This document shows, one piece after another, positions 3,254 to 18,278 of a stretch of 64,000 nt of DNA; within the stretch, counting starts at the first letter, position 1, and each line of letters starts with the position of its first letter. A program made the translations under genes and the position numbers. The notes below the pieces were generated by a model, which worked only from the letters and a program-made list of their open reading frames with translations, had not been told where the DNA came from and searched no databases. Origin of the DNA: Escherichia coli (GTDB taxonomy: Bacteria; Pseudomonadota; Gammaproteobacteria; Enterobacterales; Enterobacteriaceae); the NCBI RefSeq assembly GCF_003018235.1, contig NZ_CP027437.1; one strand, given 5' to 3'.

Positions 3254-3523
3254 ATGAGAGGACTGGAGCTTGAACGAATGACGCCGGAAAAAATGCATGC
3301 AATTGGTATGGAGTTCATCAGGAGATCTGAGGCCATGACGCAGGCGGGGATGACAAAAGACGCTGTCAGAAAAAATCTGCTTCCGGCGATACAGCGCCTG
3401 AACCGTGCAAAACATGAGCTTCAGATGGTGGTTGATCAGATGATCGATAAGGCAGCAGAGCTGGAAAAGTATAGCAGTGCGCTTGAAAAAATCATTCAGG
3501 ATATTGTGGGCACTGAGCAGTAA
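3254..3523 (+). CDS. hypothetical helical prophage protein (89 aa)
   Basis: ATG preceded by GAGGTGG RBS; first gene of a tightly spaced three-gene cassette. Confidence 0.4.
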   Translation: MRGLELERMTPEKMHAIGMEFIRRSEAMTQAGMTKDAVRKNLLPAIQRLNRAKHELQMVVDQMIDKAAELEKYSSALEKIIQDIVGTEQ

Positions 3524-3533
3524 GAGGTGGGGT

Positions 3534-4613
3534 ATGCAGGCGATCCTGACGGTATTCCCGCAGCGTAATGCCGGGATAACACTGATGAAAACAGGTAATC
3601 TGACAGCGCGGTTCAGGGACGGGCAGAGAATAATGATAAGGGATGTTCCGTCTGTGATGGCTGGGATGCCATCAGGAGAAATTCCGTCATCAGGACAGAG
3701 GCTGGCGGAAGAGGAAGGACTGACGGCTTTCTTTGCTGACGGAAGGGTAATAAAGCGTGCTGGTGGCAGTGATGCCATGGCGCGTTGGGTGAGCAGGATT
3801 GCAGGCTGCCAGTGTGAGAATGGTGATCACGTGGAGAACATGACAACAGCGCGGACAATGCAGGGAGAGGCGCTTCGGTTATGCCATGCCTGTGATAATC
3901 ATCATTATATGAAAGGATATCGGGCGCTGGCAGATGTGGCAGCCAGAAATCGTGCAGAATGGCTGATGGATTATATCAGGATGAGTCTGGGGCTGGGGGA
4001 AGATCATCAGGTGACCATTCCTGAGTTGTTTTGCTGGGCAGTGCTGAATGATGTGGCAGATGCTGTTCCGGTTATGATCGTAAGGCGTATCAGACAATTG
4101 CCGGAAGAGGAAAAGCTGAGCGGCACGATGAAAGAAGCAGATATTAATCCCTGGCAGACATCAGCAGGCACAGTGGTGAAGAAACTGGCAGATAATGCGA
4201 AGAGCGTTAATGTGTGCAATGTGCGGGTCAGACATGCAGTACGCCAGGAAGAACACAAAGAAATGGAAAAACCGGTGCTGAAACTTGTTGCAGACAGTGA
4301 TCCGGCTGCGGGCTATATGAGGAAGCCCAGAATGCAGCGGCTGTCTCTGCCGGGTTATACCTCGTGGGTGAAGCGTCAGCGATGCTGTGGATGCGGGAAA
4401 CCTGCAGATGATCCGCATCACATCACCGGGCACGGTTTTGGTGGTGCAGGGATAAAAGCCAGTGATTTGTTTGTGATCCCGCTGTGTCGGCAATGTCATC
4501 AGGAATTACACAATGACAGCAAGGCATGGGAGGAGAAAAACGGCAGTCAGTTGCTGTGGGTGATAAGGACGCTGGACAGGGCAGCGGGCATTGGCGCTTT
4601 AGTTGGGGGGTAA
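3534..4613 (+). CDS. Cys/His-rich prophage protein, resembles YdfU/DUF968 family (from memory)
   Basis: ATG with AGAGGTGGGG RBS; C-terminal CCGCGKPADDPHHITGHGFGG...IPLCRQCHQELHN zinc-binding-like cluster and internal CQCENGDH...CHACDNHHY cluster; size about 359 aa. Confidence 0.4.
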   Translation: MQAILTVFPQRNAGITLMKTGNLTARFRDGQRIMIRDVPSVMAGMPSGEIPSSGQRLAEEEGLTAFFADGRVIKRAGGSDAMARWVSRIAGCQCENGDHVENMTTARTMQGEALRLCHACDNHHYMKGYRALADVAARNRAEWLMDYIRMSLGLGEDHQVTIPELFCWAVLNDVADAVPVMIVRRIRQLPEEEKLSGTMKEADINPWQTSAGTVVKKLADNAKSVNVCNVRVRHAVRQEEHKEMEKPVLKLVADSDPAAGYMRKPRMQRLSLPGYTSWVKRQRCCGCGKPADDPHHITGHGFGGAGIKASDLFVIPLCRQCHQELHNDSKAWEEKNGSQLLWVIRTLDRAAGIGALVGG

Positions 4614-7457: not shown

Positions 7458-7534
7458 GCGCCGTTAGCTCAGCTGGACAGAGCAATTGCCTTCTAAGCAA
7501 TCGGTCACTGGTTCGAATCCAGTATGGCGCACCA
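7458..7534 (+). tRNA. tRNA-Arg (anticodon TCT, reads AGA)
   Basis: Cloverleaf folded by hand: 7-bp acceptor stem, perfect 5-bp anticodon stem ATTGC/GCAAT, loop CTTCTAA, T-loop TTCGAAT, encoded CCA. Confidence 0.85.
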
Positions 7535-7535
7535 T

Positions 7536-7610
7536 GCGGTCATCGTATAATGGCTATTACCTCGGCCTTCCAGGCTGATGATGCGGGTTCGATTCCAGCT
7601 GGCCGCTCCA
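7536..7610 (+). tRNA. tRNA-Gly (anticodon TCC), glyT-like with one T-stem mismatch
   Basis: 75 nt, near-identical to E. coli glyT recalled from memory; anticodon loop CTTCCAG; acceptor stem with one G-U; T-stem GCGGG/CCAGC has a G-A mismatch. Confidence 0.7.
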
Positions 7611-7979: not shown

Positions 7980-8321
7980 GATGTTTGGTTGCGTATTGTA
8001 TAGGCAAGTTGCGGATTCTGTCTGGTCATTGCAGAATTCACCGGGAGGCACCCGGCACCATGCAGATAATTGTTTTGTGGATGATAATACCAGCCCCTCT
8101 CCGGAGGGGCTTTCTTATGGGCGAAAAAAAGCCCGGGGAGCCGGGCAATAGCATGAGATATACGTTTTTATAGACGTACAGATTTTAATCAGAATTTATG
8201 GGGCTGCGCAACTGCGTGGCCTTTTTTGTTTTGTGGGCTAAGGTTTTCCCCTTTGATTCGCCATGTGGCTGAACCTGTAGCCCGCCACTGTTCAGACGCA
8301 ATCCCGGCAAGGGGAGGAATA

Positions 8322-10349
8322 ATGGCATTTAAACACTACGATCTGGTCTCTGCCAGCAGCGGTGATGAACTGCAAAAGAAACTGACAGAAAAAATAAATG
8401 AAGGGTGGCAGCCATACGGTTCGCCGCTTGTTTCGTATGACGATAACGGGATGAAAATTATTCAGGCCATTGCAGCAGAGGGTGATGTCAGGATCCCGGT
8501 TGAAACGCCTGATGATGGTGGTGATTCACCGGTCACAATGACCTCCGGTGCACCTGATTATTATTATGTTGTTGTGCTTGCCGGACAGTCCAACGGCATG
8601 GCCTACGGTGAGGGGCTTCCGTTACCGGACTCTTATGACCGCCCGGACCCGCGCATTAAACAGCTGGCACGCCGCAGTACAGTGACGCCGGGTGGGGACG
8701 CCTGTGCATACAATGATGTGATTCCGGCTGACCATTGTCTGCATGATGTACAGGATATGAGCGGTGTTAATCATCCGAAAGCGGACCTGAATAAGGGGCA
8801 GTATGGCTGTGTCAGTCAGGGGCTGCATATTGCCAAAAAACTGCTGTCGTATATCCCGCAGAATGCAGGGATACTTCTGGTGCCCTGCTGCCGTGGTGGT
8901 TCTGCATTCACCACCGGGGCTGACGGCACATTCAGTGAGGTCACCGGCGCATCCGCTGACGCTGCACGCTGGGGTGCCGGTAAACCCCTGTATCAGGACA
9001 TGGTCAGCCGGACAAAAGCGGCGCTGGCCAAGAACCCGAAAAACAGGCTGCTGGCGGTGGTATGGATGCAGGGCGAGGCAGACCTTGCGTCAGGCAGTCA
9101 GCAGCATAACGGGTTATTCACGGCCATGGTTCAGCAGTTCCGGACTGACCTGTCCTCACTTGCTGCGCAGTGCGTGAGTGGCAATGCTGCCACGGTGCCG
9201 TGGATTTGTGGTGATACCACGTATTACTGGAAGGCCACTTATGGCACACAGTATGAAGCCATTTATGGAGCCTATAAGAATCTGTCCGCACAGAATATTT
9301 TCTTTGTACCGTTCCTGACAGATGAAAACGGCGCAAACACGCCAACGAACCAGCCAGCGGAAGACCCGGATATTGTGGCTGTGGGGTATTACGGTGCGGC
9401 ATCACGAACACAGGCGAACTGGACGACAGCGCAACGTGACAGCCATTTCAGCACCTGGGCGCGTCGCGGCATCATTTCTGACCGCCTTGCGTCAGCTATT
9501 CTGGTGCACGCGGGACGTACGTCAGGTTTCATTACCGGTGAAGTTTCTTCTCCGGACACTGCATCCGGTGACGGTGGTTCGTCCACTGATGCGGGTACGG
9601 ATGCGGGGACCGGCACTTCCGGAACAGGAAGTGATGACGCTACCGGAACGACACCAGCCACCGCTGCCATTATTCTGAGTGCAGACGGAGGGGATGTTTC
9701 GGCACAGGGCTGGACGGTGGAAGGCACCACGGTGACCACCACGGCAAACACGGTGACTTCATCGGGTGAGGCGCTGGCGCAGAATGTGCTGAGTGTTCCG
9801 AAACAGAGCGGGGCAGCATGGAAGCTTGTTCATACCACCACAGATGAGCCAGCGGAACTGCTGAACAATGGCGGTGAGTTCCTGTGTCGTTTCCGTATCA
9901 CGGATACTGCCATTGCTGAGGGGCGTTATGCCTTTGGTCTTTACTGGCTTCCGGACGCACAGAAGATACCAGCCGGTGCGACATTCAATAAAACAGGAAG
10001 CGGGATGTCCCCGTCCATGCTCAACTTCTATGTCCAGACGGATGGCAGCAACATAAACCTGTTATCACACTGCAGTACGAAGAGTGCAGGGAATCTGAAG
10101 ATTGGCTCATTCGGTGCATTTAACAATGAATGGCATACCTTCCGTCTTCGCTACCATGGTGGCAATACGGCAAGAGCAACGGTGACGCTGGACAGTCAGG
10201 TGGTGGGAGATATAACGCTGTTATGTGCGCCGTCAGCGGCCAGTGCCGGTGACACTCTGTCGATGATAAGTATCACATCGGGTGATACATACAGTATTGA
10301 AGTGGAAAGCCTGAGTGTGACGGTGAACGGGGCTGCGGCAGCGGCGTGA
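8322..10349 (+). CDS. prophage sialate O-acetylesterase-like protein (NanS-p-like) with long C-terminal Thr/Gly-rich domain
   Basis: GGGGAGGAATA RBS then ATG; SASA-type catalytic motif VLAGQSNGMAYGEG; N-terminal region resembling DUF1737; position equivalent to the esterase gene downstream of stx in Stx phages. Confidence 0.6.
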   Translation: MAFKHYDLVSASSGDELQKKLTEKINEGWQPYGSPLVSYDDNGMKIIQAIAAEGDVRIPVETPDDGGDSPVTMTSGAPDYYYVVVLAGQSNGMAYGEGLPLPDSYDRPDPRIKQLARRSTVTPGGDACAYNDVIPADHCLHDVQDMSGVNHPKADLNKGQYGCVSQGLHIAKKLLSYIPQNAGILLVPCCRGGSAFTTGADGTFSEVTGASADAARWGAGKPLYQDMVSRTKAALAKNPKNRLLAVVWMQGEADLASGSQQHNGLFTAMVQQFRTDLSSLAAQCVSGNAATVPWICGDTTYYWKATYGTQYEAIYGAYKNLSAQNIFFVPFLTDENGANTPTNQPAEDPDIVAVGYYGAASRTQANWTTAQRDSHFSTWARRGIISDRLASAILVHAGRTSGFITGEVSSPDTASGDGGSSTDAGTDAGTGTSGTGSDDATGTTPATAAIILSADGGDVSAQGWTVEGTTVTTTANTVTSSGEALAQNVLSVPKQSGAAWKLVHTTTDEPAELLNNGGEFLCRFRITDTAIAEGRYAFGLYWLPDAQKIPAGATFNKTGSGMSPSMLNFYVQTDGSNINLLSHCSTKSAGNLKIGSFGAFNNEWHTFRLRYHGGNTARATVTLDSQVVGDITLLCAPSAASAGDTLSMISITSGDTYSIEVESLSVTVNGAAAAA

Positions 10350-12749: not shown

Positions 12750-12863
12750 ATGAAAGGCATTGAAGTGGAGACGCCAGCCAGTCTGGATTTAACAAGAGCA
12801 GCAGCCTTTGCCATTCGTATTGTGGCAATTGCCATACTGGTCTGGGCAATCCGCTGGTGGTGA
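12750..12863 (+). CDS. small hydrophobic ORF (37 aa) overlapping the Rz start
   Basis: ATG ORF ending TGGTGATATG where Rz starts; one TM-like helix; weak RBS. Confidence 0.2.
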
Positions 12864-12864
12864 T

Positions 12865-13332
12865 ATGAACCGTGTTCTGTATGTGTTGATTATTGTCCTG
12901 CTGGTGGCCTGCGGTGCGCTGTGGCTGGCAACAGACCATTACCGCGATAATGCCATCACTTACAAAGCGCAGCGCGATAAAAAAGTCAGAGAACTGAAGC
13001 TGGCTGACGCCACCATTACTGACATGCAGCAGCGCCAGCGTGATGTTGCTGCACTCGATGCAAAATACACAAAGGAGTTAGCCGATGCGAGAGCTGAAAA
13101 TGAAACTCTGCGCGCTGATGTTGCTGCTGGTCGTAAGCGCCTGCGTGTCAACGCCACCTGTGTGTCCGCCACAGACAAAGCCACCGGCACCGCCCGCGTG
13201 GGTAATGCTGCCCGCCCCAGACTGGCAGACGCCGCTCAACGGTATTATTTCACCCTCAGAGAGCGGCTGATGACGATGCAGAAGCAACTGGAAGGGGCAC
13301 AGGAATATATCAGGACGCAATGCGTGAAATAG
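12865..13332 (+). CDS. i-spanin Rz
   Basis: N-terminal TM helix then coiled-coil periplasmic domain; embedded Rz1 frame. Confidence 0.7.
13100..13270 (+). CDS. o-spanin Rz1 (lipoprotein embedded in Rz in +1 frame)
   Basis: Lipobox LLVVSAC and Pro-rich mature region, fully inside Rz. Confidence 0.65.
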
Positions 13333-13759
13333 GTTTTCTCAGTGCGTTGTATCGTCGCCGTATTCCCGCATTAACAGAGACCGCAGCCCGACGGGGAGAC
13401 TCCTCTGCGCGAGTGTGCGGGAATAATCAGAAACGATGCACACCGGGTTTTGCCGCGTAAACAGGACGCGGACTGCACCCACATGGTCGCCTGTCCGGTG
13501 CGATGGTGGAAGAAACCGGAACACTCAGTACTCACCTGGAATAAAAAAAGCCGCAGGTGGTATGCGGCATAAAATGGCACGAATTAGTGGATGTTTCTTT
13601 TTTCGTTTGTATTTTTATCTGATTTCCTGAGGTGTAATCAATTCGAAAAATACGTGAGAACAGAGCGTGTATTTTCGACCTTTTTTTGCTGGAAGAAACC
13701 TGATGTAAACACAATTGATAATTATTATCATTTGTGGGGTCCTCCTGGCGGGGTTGGCC

Positions 13760-13795
13760 TGTCCACGGGGCGGGTCGGCGCGGAAAAAGGCGCAT
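13760..13795. other. candidate cos site (cosN-like ACGGGGCGGGTCGGCGCGG)
   Basis: Resembles lambda cosN region ACGGGGCGGCGACCTCGCGG recalled from memory; lies between lysis genes and terminase as in lambda. Confidence 0.4.
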
Positions 13796-13970
13796 TTTTG
13801 TGATTTTATCGTCATCATCATCATGTGTTTAACGTATTGATTTTAAGTGAATTCATCCTGAAAAGATGATGATTGTGGTTAATTTTTGTTCGACATCTTT
13901 GTGTGGCGCTGTTTCTTTACAAAAAAAACAGAGTCACTTCTGTTTTGCGGTATTTGTGGAGGAGGAATAA

Positions 13971-14447
13971 ATGGACGGCGAGCTGAAAAATATGAAGTTC
14001 AATATTAATCAACTGGCATTCCTTTCAGGCCTGCACCGGCAGACTGTTGCCGCCAGAATGGCGGATGTTCCTCTTGCGCCAGGCAGTAATGAAAAGAAAA
14101 AACTTTATCTCCTGACGGATTTGATTAGTTCGTTACTGGAAAAACCACCCTCTTCCGAAGATGAGGAGATGGATCCACACGATCGCAAGGCATGGTATCA
14201 GTCCGAGCGCGAGCGCCTTAAATTTCAGCATGAAACTGTTCAGCTTGTGCCCGTCAGTGATGTCAGGCGGTCGTTTTCCGTCGTGGTGAAAGCCATTGTG
14301 CAGATACTGGAAACCTGGCCTGACAGGCTGGAAAGGGACAGGGGGTGGACTGCATCACAACTGAACGAAGTGCAGATCGTTGTTGATGAGATCCGTGACA
14401 CGCTGGAAAAGGCAGTGATTGCCTGCTGTGATGAGGCCGATATGTGA
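13971..14447 (+). CDS. terminase small subunit (Nu1-like)
   Basis: GGAGGAATAA RBS then ATG; N-terminal HTH like lambda Nu1; overlaps large subunit start. Confidence 0.7.
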   Translation: MDGELKNMKFNINQLAFLSGLHRQTVAARMADVPLAPGSNEKKKLYLLTDLISSLLEKPPSSEDEEMDPHDRKAWYQSERERLKFQHETVQLVPVSDVRRSFSVVVKAIVQILETWPDRLERDRGWTASQLNEVQIVVDEIRDTLEKAVIACCDEADM

Positions 14448-16567
14448 ATCAGGTGAACGAGAGCCACAGCCGCGCATCAGATATCTGGCGCGAAGTGGCC
14501 TCACTGTTTCGCCCACCAGGCCGGTTACCTGTGGCGGAAGCCATCAGGCGTTACATGCGGGTACCACGGGGAGCCAATACTTCCGGTCCGTGGGAGTCAT
14601 CGCTGACGCCCTACATGATTGACCCCATTAATACATTATCAGCCCGTGAATATGACGCGGTGGTGTTTGTGGGACCGGCGCGAACCGGGAAAACCGAAGG
14701 GCTGATTGATGGCTGGATTGTGTATGGCATTATCTGCGATCCGGCGGATATGCTGGTGGTGCAGATGACCGAAACAAAGGCGCGGGAGCATTCCAGAACG
14801 CGTCTTTCCAGGACATTTCGTCACAGTCCGGAGGTCAGTAAACGCCTCAGCCCTTCCCGTAATGACAACAACGTCCACGATAAAATGTTTCTTGACGGCT
14901 CCTTTCTGAAAATTGGCTGGCCGTCGATCACCGTATTTTCCTCCTCAGATTACCGCCGGGTGGCGCTGACGGACTATGACCGTTTTCCTGAGAACGTCGA
15001 CGGTGAAGGGGATGCCTTCACGCTGGCATCAAAGCGTACCACCACCTTTATGTCCTCAGGGATGACCCTGGTCGAAAGTTCACCCGGGCGGGATATCACC
15101 GACACCAAATGGCGATGTGGTGGTGCACATGAGGCTCCGCCAACAACGGGGATCCTGTCGCTGTATAACCGGGGAGACCGCCGCCGGTGGTACTGGCCGT
15201 GTCCGCACTGCGGGGAATATTTTCAGCCGGTGATGGATAACATGACCGGTTACCGTAATAACCCAGATTTTGTGGCTGCGGGTCAGGCTGCCCGTCTGAT
15301 GTGTCCGCACTGTCGCGGGCTGATTGCTCCGGAACAGAAACGCGAACTGAATAACAGGGGGATCTGGCTGCGGGAAGGTGAACGGGCGGCGGCGGACGGC
15401 AGCATCACCGGAACGCCACGAAATTCCAGGATTGCGTCATTCTGGATGGAGGGTCCGGCTGCGGCGTTTCAGACCTGGGAACAACTGATTTTTAAGCTGC
15501 TGGCGGCAGAAGAAGAGTATGAGCGAACCGGCAGTGAAGAGACCCTGAAAGCGGTGGTGAATACCGATATCGGACGGCCTTATCTGCCCCGTTCAGCCAC
15601 GGAACAGCGTAAAAGTGAACTGCTTGAACAGCGTGCTGAGCCGGTTCCCCGGCGGTGTGTGCCGGATGGGGTGCGCTTCATTGAGGCAACGGTTGACGTA
15701 CAGGGCGGTAAAAACCGCCGGTTTGTGGTGCAGATCACCGGATATGGAGAGCAGGGGGAACGCTGGATTGTTGATCGCTACAACATCCGGCAATCACTGC
15801 GATGCAGTCCCGGTGGTGAGAGCCTGCCGGTTGATCCGGCGGCCTATCCGGAAGACTGGGAACTGTTGCTGACAGATGTGTTTCACAAAACCTGGCCGCT
15901 GGCGTCTGATCCGGATGTGCATATGCGGCTCATGGCGATGGCCGTGGATACGGGCGGTGAAGCCGGGGTGACGGATAACGCCTATCGTTTCTGGCGGCAG
16001 TGCCGCCGGGAAGGGCTGGGTAACCGGGTGTTTCTGTTCAAGGGGGATGGTCTTCGTCGCGACAGACTGATTAACCGGACATTCCCGGATAACACCGGCA
16101 GAAGCGCCCGCCGGGCCAGGGCGAGCGGTGACGTTGCCCTGTGGCTGGTACAGACCGATGCGTTTAAGGACCGGGTGAATAATGCGCTGTGGCGTGACAC
16201 ACCGGGGCCGAACTATATCCACTTTCCTGACTGGCTGGGACGGTGGTTTTTCGATGAGCTGACCTATGAGGAGCGCGGCAGTGACGGAAAATGGCGAAAA
16301 CCGGGCAGAGGCGCTAACGAAGCGTTTGACCTGCTGGTCTATGCGGATGCGCTTGCCGTTCTGCATGGCTACGAGAAGATACGCTGGCCGTCTGCACCGG
16401 ACTGGGCGCAGCGGGAAACATGGCTTGTCGGTCCGGAGGAGCGTTCAGGGCTGACAACATCACGGGCGCTGCCGGAAAGGAAAGAAAAACGCCGTCGCAG
16501 GCAGGAAAAACTGCGCGCAGAGCGGGCAGAGGATAATCCGTGGATAACATCAGGAGGCTGGTTGTGA
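14444..16567 (+). CDS. terminase large subunit (lambda gpA-like)
   Basis: Walker A VVFVGPARTGKTEG; zinc-binding CPHCGE...CPHCRG as in lambda A; 707 aa; GTG start overlapping upstream stop. Confidence 0.9.
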   Translation: MNQVNESHSRASDIWREVASLFRPPGRLPVAEAIRRYMRVPRGANTSGPWESSLTPYMIDPINTLSAREYDAVVFVGPARTGKTEGLIDGWIVYGIICDPADMLVVQMTETKAREHSRTRLSRTFRHSPEVSKRLSPSRNDNNVHDKMFLDGSFLKIGWPSITVFSSSDYRRVALTDYDRFPENVDGEGDAFTLASKRTTTFMSSGMTLVESSPGRDITDTKWRCGGAHEAPPTTGILSLYNRGDRRRWYWPCPHCGEYFQPVMDNMTGYRNNPDFVAAGQAARLMCPHCRGLIAPEQKRELNNRGIWLREGERAAADGSITGTPRNSRIASFWMEGPAAAFQTWEQLIFKLLAAEEEYERTGSEETLKAVVNTDIGRPYLPRSATEQRKSELLEQRAEPVPRRCVPDGVRFIEATVDVQGGKNRRFVVQITGYGEQGERWIVDRYNIRQSLRCSPGGESLPVDPAAYPEDWELLLTDVFHKTWPLASDPDVHMRLMAMAVDTGGEAGVTDNAYRFWRQCRREGLGNRVFLFKGDGLRRDRLINRTFPDNTGRSARRARASGDVALWLVQTDAFKDRVNNALWRDTPGPNYIHFPDWLGRWFFDELTYEERGSDGKWRKPGRGANEAFDLLVYADALAVLHGYEKIRWPSAPDWAQRETWLVGPEERSGLTTSRALPERKEKRRRRQEKLRAERAEDNPWITSGGWL

Positions 16568-16587: not shown

Positions 16588-16776
16588 ATGATACAGCGGT
16601 ACCGCGATGCGGAAATGGCGGTACTGGAAGGAAAATCCGTCACATTTAACGGGCAGCAACTGACGCTGGAAAGTCTGTCCCAGATCCGCGCCGGTCGGCA
16701 GGAGTGGGAGCGAAGACTTACGGCGATGGAGAACCGCAGACGGGGGAGTCCGGGGTTTAAACTGGTGAGGTTCTGA
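16588..16776 (+). CDS. head-tail joining protein (gpW-like)
   Basis: C-terminal RRRGSPGF resembles lambda W end; start uncertain (GTG 16564 or ATG 16588). Confidence 0.55.
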   Translation: MIQRYRDAEMAVLEGKSVTFNGQQLTLESLSQIRAGRQEWERRLTAMENRRRGSPGFKLVRF

Positions 16777-18278
16777 TGGCGATTAGTGATGATGTGATTG
16801 GTTTTTTCTCGCCCGGCTGGAAAGCGGCGCGATTACGCTCAAGGGCGTTAATTATGGCCTATGAGGCCGTGAAACCCACCCGCACGCACAAAGCCCGGCG
16901 GGAAAACCGTTCTGCCGATCAGCTCAGTAAATACGGTGCGGTTTCCCTGCGCGAGCAGGCCCGCTTTCTGGATATCAATCATGACCTGGTGATAGGCGTG
17001 TTTGACAAGCTGGAGGAGCGGGTGATTGGCGCCAGGGGGATCACCGTTGAACCTCATCCGGTGCTGAAAAACGGGAAGATTGCGGCGGAGCTGGCAGCGG
17101 ATATCCGGCGGCTGTGGGCGGAATGGTCTGTCAGTCCGGATGTGACCGGACAGTACACCCGTCCCATGCTTGAACGTCTGCTGCTGCGCACCTGGCTGCG
17201 GGACGGGGAAGTGTTTGCGCAGATGGTCAGTGGTGCGGCAGGCGGTCTTAAGCGGTCTGCCGGTGTGCCTTTCTGGCTTGAGGCGATGGAGCCGGATTTT
17301 GTGCCCATGCGCAGTGATGAATCTGCCGGACTGAATCAGGGCGTTTTTCTGGATGAGTGGGGCAGGCCGAAAAAATATCTGGTTTACAAAAATTATCCGG
17401 TTTCCGGGATACAGAGTGATACCAAAGAGATCGCCGCAGACAATATGGTGCACCTGAAGTTCACCCGTCGCCTGCACCAGACGCGTGGCACATCCATGCT
17501 GTCAGGGGTGCTGATGCGGATCAGTGCGCTTAAGGAATATGAAGACGCCGAGCTGACTTCGGCACGTGTTGCGGCGGCGCTGGGGCTGTATATCCGTAAA
17601 GGGGACGGACAGGACTATGAAGATCCGGGGGTGAAAGACAACGAACGTGAAGTGCATATCACCCCGGGCATTATCTATGACGATTTGCGCAAGGGTGAGG
17701 ATATCGGCATGGTCAAATCAGACCGTCCGAATCCCAATCTTGAGAATTTTCGTAACGGCCAGCTGCGTGCGGTGGCGGCAGGCAGTCGTCTGAGCTTTTC
17801 CAGTGCGGCGCGCAACTACAACGGCACCTACAGTGCCCAGCGGCAGGAGCTGGTGGAGTCCACCGATGGTTATTTTATCCTTCAGGACTGCTTTATTGGC
17901 GCGGTAACCCGTCCGGTATACCGGGCATGGCTGAATATGGCGGTTGCGGCAGGTCTGCTGAAAATCCCGACTGGCCTGGATATGAAGACGTTATATAACG
18001 CGACGTATTCCGGTCCGGTGATGCCGTGGATTGACCCGGTTAAGGAAGCTGAAGCCTGGCGGATACAGATCAGGGGTGGTGCCGCGACGGAATCCGACTG
18101 GATCCGCGCAAGCGGGCGCAACCCGGATGAGGTCAAACGTCGCCGTAAGGCTGAAACTGATGAAAACCGCAGGCTGGGGCTGGTCTTTGATACTGACCCC
18201 GTCAACGACAAAGGAGGCAACAGTGCCGGAACTGAACAACAGCGTCAGCAGGCCACCGACAGCCAGCATGAAGAATAA
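16776..18278 (+). CDS. portal protein (lambda gpB-like)
   Basis: 500-aa ORF directly after W with ATGA overlap; lambda-like head gene order. Confidence 0.8.
   Translation: MAISDDVIGFFSPGWKAARLRSRALIMAYEAVKPTRTHKARRENRSADQLSKYGAVSLREQARFLDINHDLVIGVFDKLEERVIGARGITVEPHPVLKNGKIAAELAADIRRLWAEWSVSPDVTGQYTRPMLERLLLRTWLRDGEVFAQMVSGAAGGLKRSAGVPFWLEAMEPDFVPMRSDESAGLNQGVFLDEWGRPKKYLVYKNYPVSGIQSDTKEIAADNMVHLKFTRRLHQTRGTSMLSGVLMRISALKEYEDAELTSARVAAALGLYIRKGDGQDYEDPGVKDNEREVHITPGIIYDDLRKGEDIGMVKSDRPNPNLENFRNGQLRAVAAGSRLSFSSAARNYNGTYSAQRQELVESTDGYFILQDCFIGAVTRPVYRAWLNMAVAAGLLKIPTGLDMKTLYNATYSGPVMPWIDPVKEAEAWRIQIRGGAATESDWIRASGRNPDEVKRRRKAETDENRRLGLVFDTDPVNDKGGNSAGTEQQRQQATDSQHEE

Follow-up and report, generated by a model that had tools for sequence, protein, structure and literature searches.

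The region between positions 13737 and 13910 of the window, by which we mean the whole 64-kb stretch of E. coli DNA analysed, is very probably a lambda-type cos site of DUF1441-type specificity that belongs to a VT1-Sakai/Stx-phage-like lambdoid prophage of E. coli. As read from the sequence, its elements follow the lambda-type order cosQ-cosN-cosB, with a cosB that is not lambda-like in sequence. Natural cosN variation among lambda-like phages is already known from the Feiss laboratory, and the site is of this known kind. The features assigned to the region and to the neighbouring genes are given below, with slashes within motifs marking nick positions.

12808-13332: Rz-family lysis gene (Pfam Phage_lysis), closing the lysis cassette upstream of cos.
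13716-13730: palindrome TGATAATTATTATCA, directly upstream of cosQ; the lambda counterpart at the equivalent spot is TGATAATCATTATCA.
13737-13743, + strand: cosQ heptamer GGGTCCT, the same as the lambda packaging-termination element.
13766-13780, + strand: cosN, CG/GGGCGGGTCGG/CG, with the top-strand nick predicted after 13767.
Opposite 13778/13779 (11-nt model) or 13779/13780 (12-nt model): predicted bottom-strand nick.
13779-13811, + strand: conserved right flank and spacer CGCGGAAAAAGGCGCATTTTTGTGATTTTATCG, typical of cos sites linked to a DUF1441 TerS.
13812-13827, + strand: candidate R3, TCATCATCATCATGTG, bp 45-60 from the left nick; putative TerS site.
13830-13842, - strand: candidate I1 bend site with a perfect IHF core consensus, WATCAANNNNTTR (AATCAATACGTTA).
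13860-13875, - strand: candidate R2, GAAAAGATGATGATTG on the + strand and CAATCATCATCTTTTC on the - strand, bp 93-108, inverted relative to R3.
13888-13903, + strand: candidate R1, GTTCGACATCTTTGTG, bp 121-136, inside the conserved block TTTTTGTTCGACATCTTT.
13925-13946, + strand: hairpin AAAACAGAgtcactTCTGTTTT (inverted repeat I8), upstream of the terS ribosome-binding site.
13971-14447, + strand: TerS, DUF1441 / PHROG 141, with a predicted N-terminal MerR/Nu1-like winged helix-turn-helix.
14444-16567, + strand: TerL of the gpA family, with ATPase and endonuclease domains (GpA_ATPase, E = 3.7e-81; GpA_nuclease, E = 3.1e-84).
16776-18278: lambda-family portal, downstream of terS and terL.

An earlier note on this DNA had proposed a lambda-like cos with a variant cohesive-end sequence between 13600 and 13800, and this was borne out by ACGGGGCGGGTCGGCGCGG at 13765-13783 on the + strand, which reads ACG/GGGCGGGTCGG/CGCGG, and by the 68-nt cosQ-cosN stretch from the palindrome to CGCGG, in which 48 positions are identical to lambda (z = 6.3; score reached by none of 1000 shuffles). 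The composite pattern GGGTCCT-N18-28-ACGGGGCGG had one match in the window and none across 100 shuffles, the right flank CGCGGAAAAAGGCGCATTTTT had a single window match with 0 expected, and pattern scans of the 64-kb window found no second cos. The cosQ heptamer, highly conserved in lambda-like phages (Feiss 2015), did not vary among 26 distinct Sakai-clade sequences and stands 24 bp from the predicted top-strand nick, compared with 23 bp in lambda. All features of the VT1-Sakai-type (DUF1441) cos clade were present, namely the flank CGCGGAAAAARGCGCATTTTT, the TCATCATCAT repeats and a DUF1441 terS gene downstream. The flank and spacer CGCGGAAAAAGGCGCATTTTTGTGATTTTATCG were near-invariant in the Sakai clade, with one A/G-polymorphic column, and homologous in cdtI, LLS, Fels-1 and Cr-LKS3, and the palindrome was found in VT1-Sakai and in part in cdtI but was missing from LLS and mEp460_4F5. 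Promoter and terminator scans gave nothing above shuffles.

Downstream of cosN, three TCATCATCAT-type repeats are oriented + - +, and the IHF consensus separates the first from the second, which gives a complex-cosB layout. The perfect IHF consensus between candidates R3 and R2 is the single match in the 64-kb window, where about 2 are expected, and five of the seven window matches to an R-like motif, defined post hoc, fall within 191 bp. Candidate R2 was drawn from the inverted repeats I3/I5/I7 and from AAAAGATGATG, conserved in the clade; the R sites as a whole are putative assignments made from repeats and conservation. R3 occupies bp 50-65 in lambda and bp 48-60 in N15. The lambda R core (CGTTTCC / GGAAACG) does not occur in 13780-13970, and the candidate R sequences are not of the CGTTTCC(T/G)TTCT type. 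Alignment with lambda cos, which the earlier note had named as a check, thus upheld the likeness for cosQ-cosN and not for cosB, where the sequence between CGCGG and the terS start codon scored at chance level (z = 0.9; score reached by 182 of 1000 shuffles). The CGTCAT and CTGAAAAGA blocks that had been likened to lambda cosB do exist, at 13810-13815 and 13858-13866, but outside 13600-13800; the CTG of CTGAAAAGA varies among close relatives, and the likeness, judged from these comparisons, is due to chance or to non-conserved sequence. The CATCATCAT element is common to LLS and yong2, its equivalent spot being occupied by CATCACCAC in mEp460-like phages and by GGCGGCGGC in cdtI, and such differing cosB elements suggest several packaging specificities inside the DUF1441 family.

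The proteins encoded next to the site agree with the earlier suggestion that terminase specificity may differ from that of lambda, as the TerS is a DUF1441 protein without BLASTP similarity to Nu1 (E = 2.0) and the TerL is 24% identical to lambda gpA. DUF1441 was the sole Pfam match of TerS, named 'terminase small subunit' in PHROGs, and a PDB sequence search with it returned no matches. A 10-sequence DUF1441 profile aligned with Nu1 by hhalign colinearly and weakly from the N-terminal helix-turn-helix (probability 24%, E = 8e-4). In the AlphaFold model of TerS (mean pLDDT 77.6), the N-terminus forms a helix-turn-helix with short strands, and Foldseek found for this model weak MerR-type winged helix-turn-helix matches (E >= 0.1), including 6hn7_B from a study of PICI packaging redirection. 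The lambda (Nu1) terminase is predicted not to recognise the cosB of the window. The DNA site at 13737-13773 was much better conserved than its enzyme (14444-16567).

The Rz lysis gene precedes the site, and terS, terL, portal and a full head-tail module follow it, colinear with VT1-Sakai; this morphogenesis module was ~87% identical to those of VT1-Sakai and several Stx2a-converting phages. The window holds only part of the prophage, and the host flank rluD-yfiH-clpB was up to 99.5% identical to E. coli. A homologous cos/terS region was found in 1501 of 5426 complete E. coli genomes, and also in VT1-Sakai and Stx2a phages. In the listed matches to the E. coli genomes, the overlapped gene was annotated as a DUF1441 family protein, and in RefSeq the closest E. 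coli match has its genes named but no cos annotated. Genes for tRNA-Arg(tct) and tRNA-Gly(tcc) at 7458-7610 lie upstream of a 707-aa ORF (8226-10349) in the prophage late region, an arrangement that resembles Stx-phage late regions.

Upstream of the palindrome, a segment of ~180 bp (13518-13700) is missing from VT1-Sakai and Stx2a phages and is flanked by direct repeats GGAAGAAACC at 13508-13517 and 13691-13700. On the - strand it has a terminator-like hairpin (13568-13550) that includes a T-run, and an Rfam scan of 13200-14100 gave only a sub-threshold CyaR-like match, at 13543-13622 on the - strand (21 bits, where the gathering score is 47). The segment might be an inserted small sRNA gene, or have no significance.

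Other origins of the same sequence were weighed against that of a phage's own cos. Many O157-type lambdoid prophages are defective, and only part of this prophage lies within the window, with the ~180-bp insertion just upstream, so that the site might be a relic whose packaging use has been lost; we consider this improbable, as every subsite is intact and matches the clade consensus, the palindrome and cosQ are both left uninterrupted by the insertion, which sits upstream of them, and TerS, TerL and portal are full-length ORFs with their Pfam domains completely covered. A cos belonging to a PICI-like satellite that hijacks a helper terminase, and not to the phage itself, would be in keeping with the lambda-like cos sites carried by PICIs, and among 137 Sakai-type cos matches tallied from fetched IMG/VR loci about 50 had no DUF1441 terS after them and some contigs had two cos sites ~2.5 kb apart; nevertheless, the single cos of the window is followed directly by terS, terL, portal and the full VT1-Sakai-colinear head-tail module, which makes this origin highly improbable. 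A chance G+C-rich likeness without any packaging role has next to no probability: taken by itself, the 9-mer ACGGGGCGG has an expected count of 0.8 in the window, but the composite pattern, its position, its conservation and its homology to phage genome ends effectively refute coincidence.

Two direct-orientation Sakai-type cos sites ~2537 bp apart were seen in the IMG/VR loci L139, L146, L153, L162, L163, L167, L168, L177, L197, L198, L204 and L206, and three such sites in L056. Between the two sites of L153 lie genes for a protein of 75 aa and for one of 629 aa, the latter read by eye as a ClpP-like protease/major-capsid fusion, and the second cos of L153 is followed by a 93-aa ORF in place of terS. 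These terS-less or paired sites may represent cos-bearing satellites or a cos-flanked cassette.

The conserved nick contexts CG/ and /CG stand 11 bp apart in the window and not 12, and we put at about even the chance that the cohesive end is the 11-mer GGGCGGGTCGG rather than a 12-mer, as deduced from the flanking bases. [quoted passage not shown] 2015); the window fits this pattern because GGGCGG of the lambda end GGGCGGCGACCT is kept and differences begin at position 7. In the clade alignment, made of 26 distinct cos sequences linked to TerS proteins at least 93% identical, the stretches from cosQ to ACGGGGCG and from CGCGGAAAAA to the CAT repeats were essentially invariant, substitutions and 1-nt indels being restricted to the interval between the nick flanks. 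Among the 137 Sakai-type sites tallied from fetched IMG/VR loci, this interval was 10 or 11 bp in nearly all, 12 bp in three and 7 bp in one; the commonest form was the 10-bp GGGCGGGCGG, and the 11-bp forms included GGGCGGGCGGG, as in VT1-Sakai, and GGGCGGGTCGG, as in the window (11 sites). The cosQ spacer and the interval measured 23 + 12 bp in lambda, 24 + 11 bp in the window, 24 + 10 bp in the 10-bp type, 22 + 12 bp in cdtI and LLS, and 26 + 9 bp in Cr-LKS3, for which the split (total 35) uses the published 9-nt end and not the regex split. Spacer and interval offset each other, which keeps /CGCGG 33-35 bp from cosQ while the interval spans 9-12 bp. For the cyanophage Cr-LKS3, 9-nt 5' cohesive ends (GGGCTCGCG) with the same two bases flanking them on each side as in lambda have been reported; together with the compensating distances, this argues that the nicks are set by the flanking contexts, and thus favours an 11-nt end.

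The same cos could instead have a 12-nt end, either GGGCGGGTCGGC (left nick ACG/, right flank GC) or GGGGCGGGTCGG (right nick /CGCGG, left flank AC), if the TerL dimer holds its two nicks 12 bp apart. Ends of 12 bases are part of the definition of lambda-like phages, with cosN nicked by symmetrically placed protomers, and the lambda terminase nicks 12 bp apart; were that spacing fixed, an 11-bp interval would entail one non-canonical flank. By manual count, 44 bp separate ACG/ from TCATCATCATCATG in the window and likewise in LLS, so that placing the right nick by its distance from cosB would yield a 12-nt end, although the same distance is 43-46 bp in other relatives (also counted manually) and not strictly fixed; the spacing from ACG to R3 was accordingly set aside as a ruler for the right nick, not being decisive. 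The 11-nt interval keeps CG on both sides and has three symmetric pairs, whereas either 12-nt form, with one or two symmetric pairs, destroys one flanking CG, a dinucleotide described by Feiss as highly conserved. A fixed 12-nt end would also require a 2-nt shift in the 10-bp variants of near-identical phages, and, as Cr-LKS3 shows, a 9-nt end between the same flanks is within reach of a terminase of the DUF1441-type family. On balance we regard a 12-nt end as rather unlikely, yet deserving serious weight. Of the 12-nt end in the earlier note, the divergence from the lambda sequence stood, but the left-anchored 12-mer GGGCGGGTCGGC is unlikely because 11 bp separate the nick contexts, and phages with terminases of this family have intervals of anything from 9 to 12 bp.

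Extended to the clade, the 11-nt reading would give VT1-Sakai-type phages (TerS at least 93% identical) polymorphic non-canonical ends, mostly of 10 nt, of 11 nt here and rarely of 12 nt, a proposal that we hold tentatively, its chances falling a little short of even. Variation in cohesive-end length among lambda-like phages has already been reported, as citing papers describe the work of Vahanian et al. (2017), and end-length work here extends known variation rather than opening a new field. Literature searches with the exact motifs of the window, of VT1-Sakai and of the 10-bp variants, on both strands, found no phage paper, DUF1441 together with 'cohesive' gave nothing, and virion-end data for VT1-Sakai-type phages were not found. 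If the proposal is true, the nicks of gpA-family TerL proteins are set by the CG/GGG and /CGCGG contexts and not by a fixed 12-bp dimer geometry, and unequal, unmatched ends could limit the cyclisation of chimeric genomes among co-resident EHEC prophages. If the 10-, 11- and 12-bp intervals reflect real overhang differences, the clade is a natural series for studying two-nick positioning by gpA-type enzymes.

In the working of the site that we propose, the DUF1441 TerS would bind the TCATCATCAT-type repeats of cosB, that is R3, the inverted R2 and R1, and IHF would bend the DNA at 13830-13842; this would position the gpA-family TerL on cosN. The nicks made by TerL would fall after ACG (13767) in the top strand and beside CGCGG in the bottom strand, leaving 5' overhangs, a polarity suggested by analogy with the start of the cdtI record, the LLS annotation and the Cr-LKS3 report. 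Packaging would proceed rightwards, with the terS side first, and would end at the next cos, where cosQ would be needed. Binding sites, nick positions, overhang polarity and overhang length are all predictions for the cos of the window. Such a site shows where the genome ends lie and which way the DNA is packaged in a very common class of E. coli prophages, Stx1- and Stx2-converting phages among them; public annotation pipelines leave cos unannotated, and the practical value is small.

Compared with known systems, the window shares with lambda the cosQ heptamer, ACG/GGGCGG, the CGCGG flank, the position between Rz and the terminase genes and a gpA-family TerL, together with an apparent R3-I1-R2-R1 layout at similar distances (R3 at bp 50-65 in lambda and 45-60 in the window; terS ATG at bp 191 and 204, respectively), but lambda has a 12-bp CG-to-CG interval, a Nu1 TerS and a cosB unrelated in sequence. 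The cdtI and LLS phages have TerL proteins 71% identical to that of the window and share ACG/, /CGCGG and the GGC..TTTTT flank. With mEp213 they form a group with DUF1441 TerS proteins and 12-nt ends (GGGCGGGAGCGT / GGGCGGCGCGCT), a 12-bp interval and a 22-bp cosQ spacer, in contrast to 11 and 24 bp in the window. The cdtI record (AB285204) starts with GGGCGGGAGCGT/CGCGG, homologous to cosN of the window, and ends in CCACG; in this phage GGCGGCGGC replaces the CAT repeats. The LLS record (PQ299149) annotates a 12-nt 5' end, GGGCGGCGCGCT, at the homologous position, an end that its authors did not measure but deduced from how TerL grouped and from the mEp213 analysis by M. Feiss; LLS has the TCATCATCATCATG repeat in common with the window, and its inverted element is TTCGACATCTTG.

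Two further phages were set aside as comparisons. The start of mEp460_4F5 (LR595868; L007/L008), CCACGGGGCGGGAGCGCGG, was rejected as a mapped end, as it lacks 3 nt (CGT) of L111/cdtI (GGGCGGGAGCGTCGCGG); the termini of this record are probably an assembly artefact at the cohesive ends. Phage 2B8 shares only a segment upstream of cos and has Nu1/gpA, and was uninformative. In the Fels-1 prophage of Salmonella LT2 (L009, NC_010391; ~3520-3560), GGTACTC replaces the cosQ GGGTCCT, which is otherwise invariant among relatives and is kept in the closely similar locus L043, and cosQ of Fels-1 may be degenerate.

Cr-LKS3 resembles the window in its DUF1441-type TerS (32% identical), its gpA-type TerL (42%), its CG/ and /CGCGG flanks and a cosQ-like GGGTCCC at the same distance of 35 bp from the right nick, and differs in its very distant host, its 9-nt overhang and a short, unrelated cosB. 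VT1-Sakai and the Stx1/Stx2 EHEC prophages share with the window a colinear cos region of ~84-85% identity, a TerS 95.6% identical, the same cosQ spacing of 24 bp and the same cosB elements. They differ from it in cosN (GGGCGGGCGGG in VT1-Sakai, GGGCGGGTCGG in the window), in lacking the ~180 bp that the window has upstream of cosQ, and in the IHF match, perfect in the window (TTGAT) and TTGTT in most relatives.
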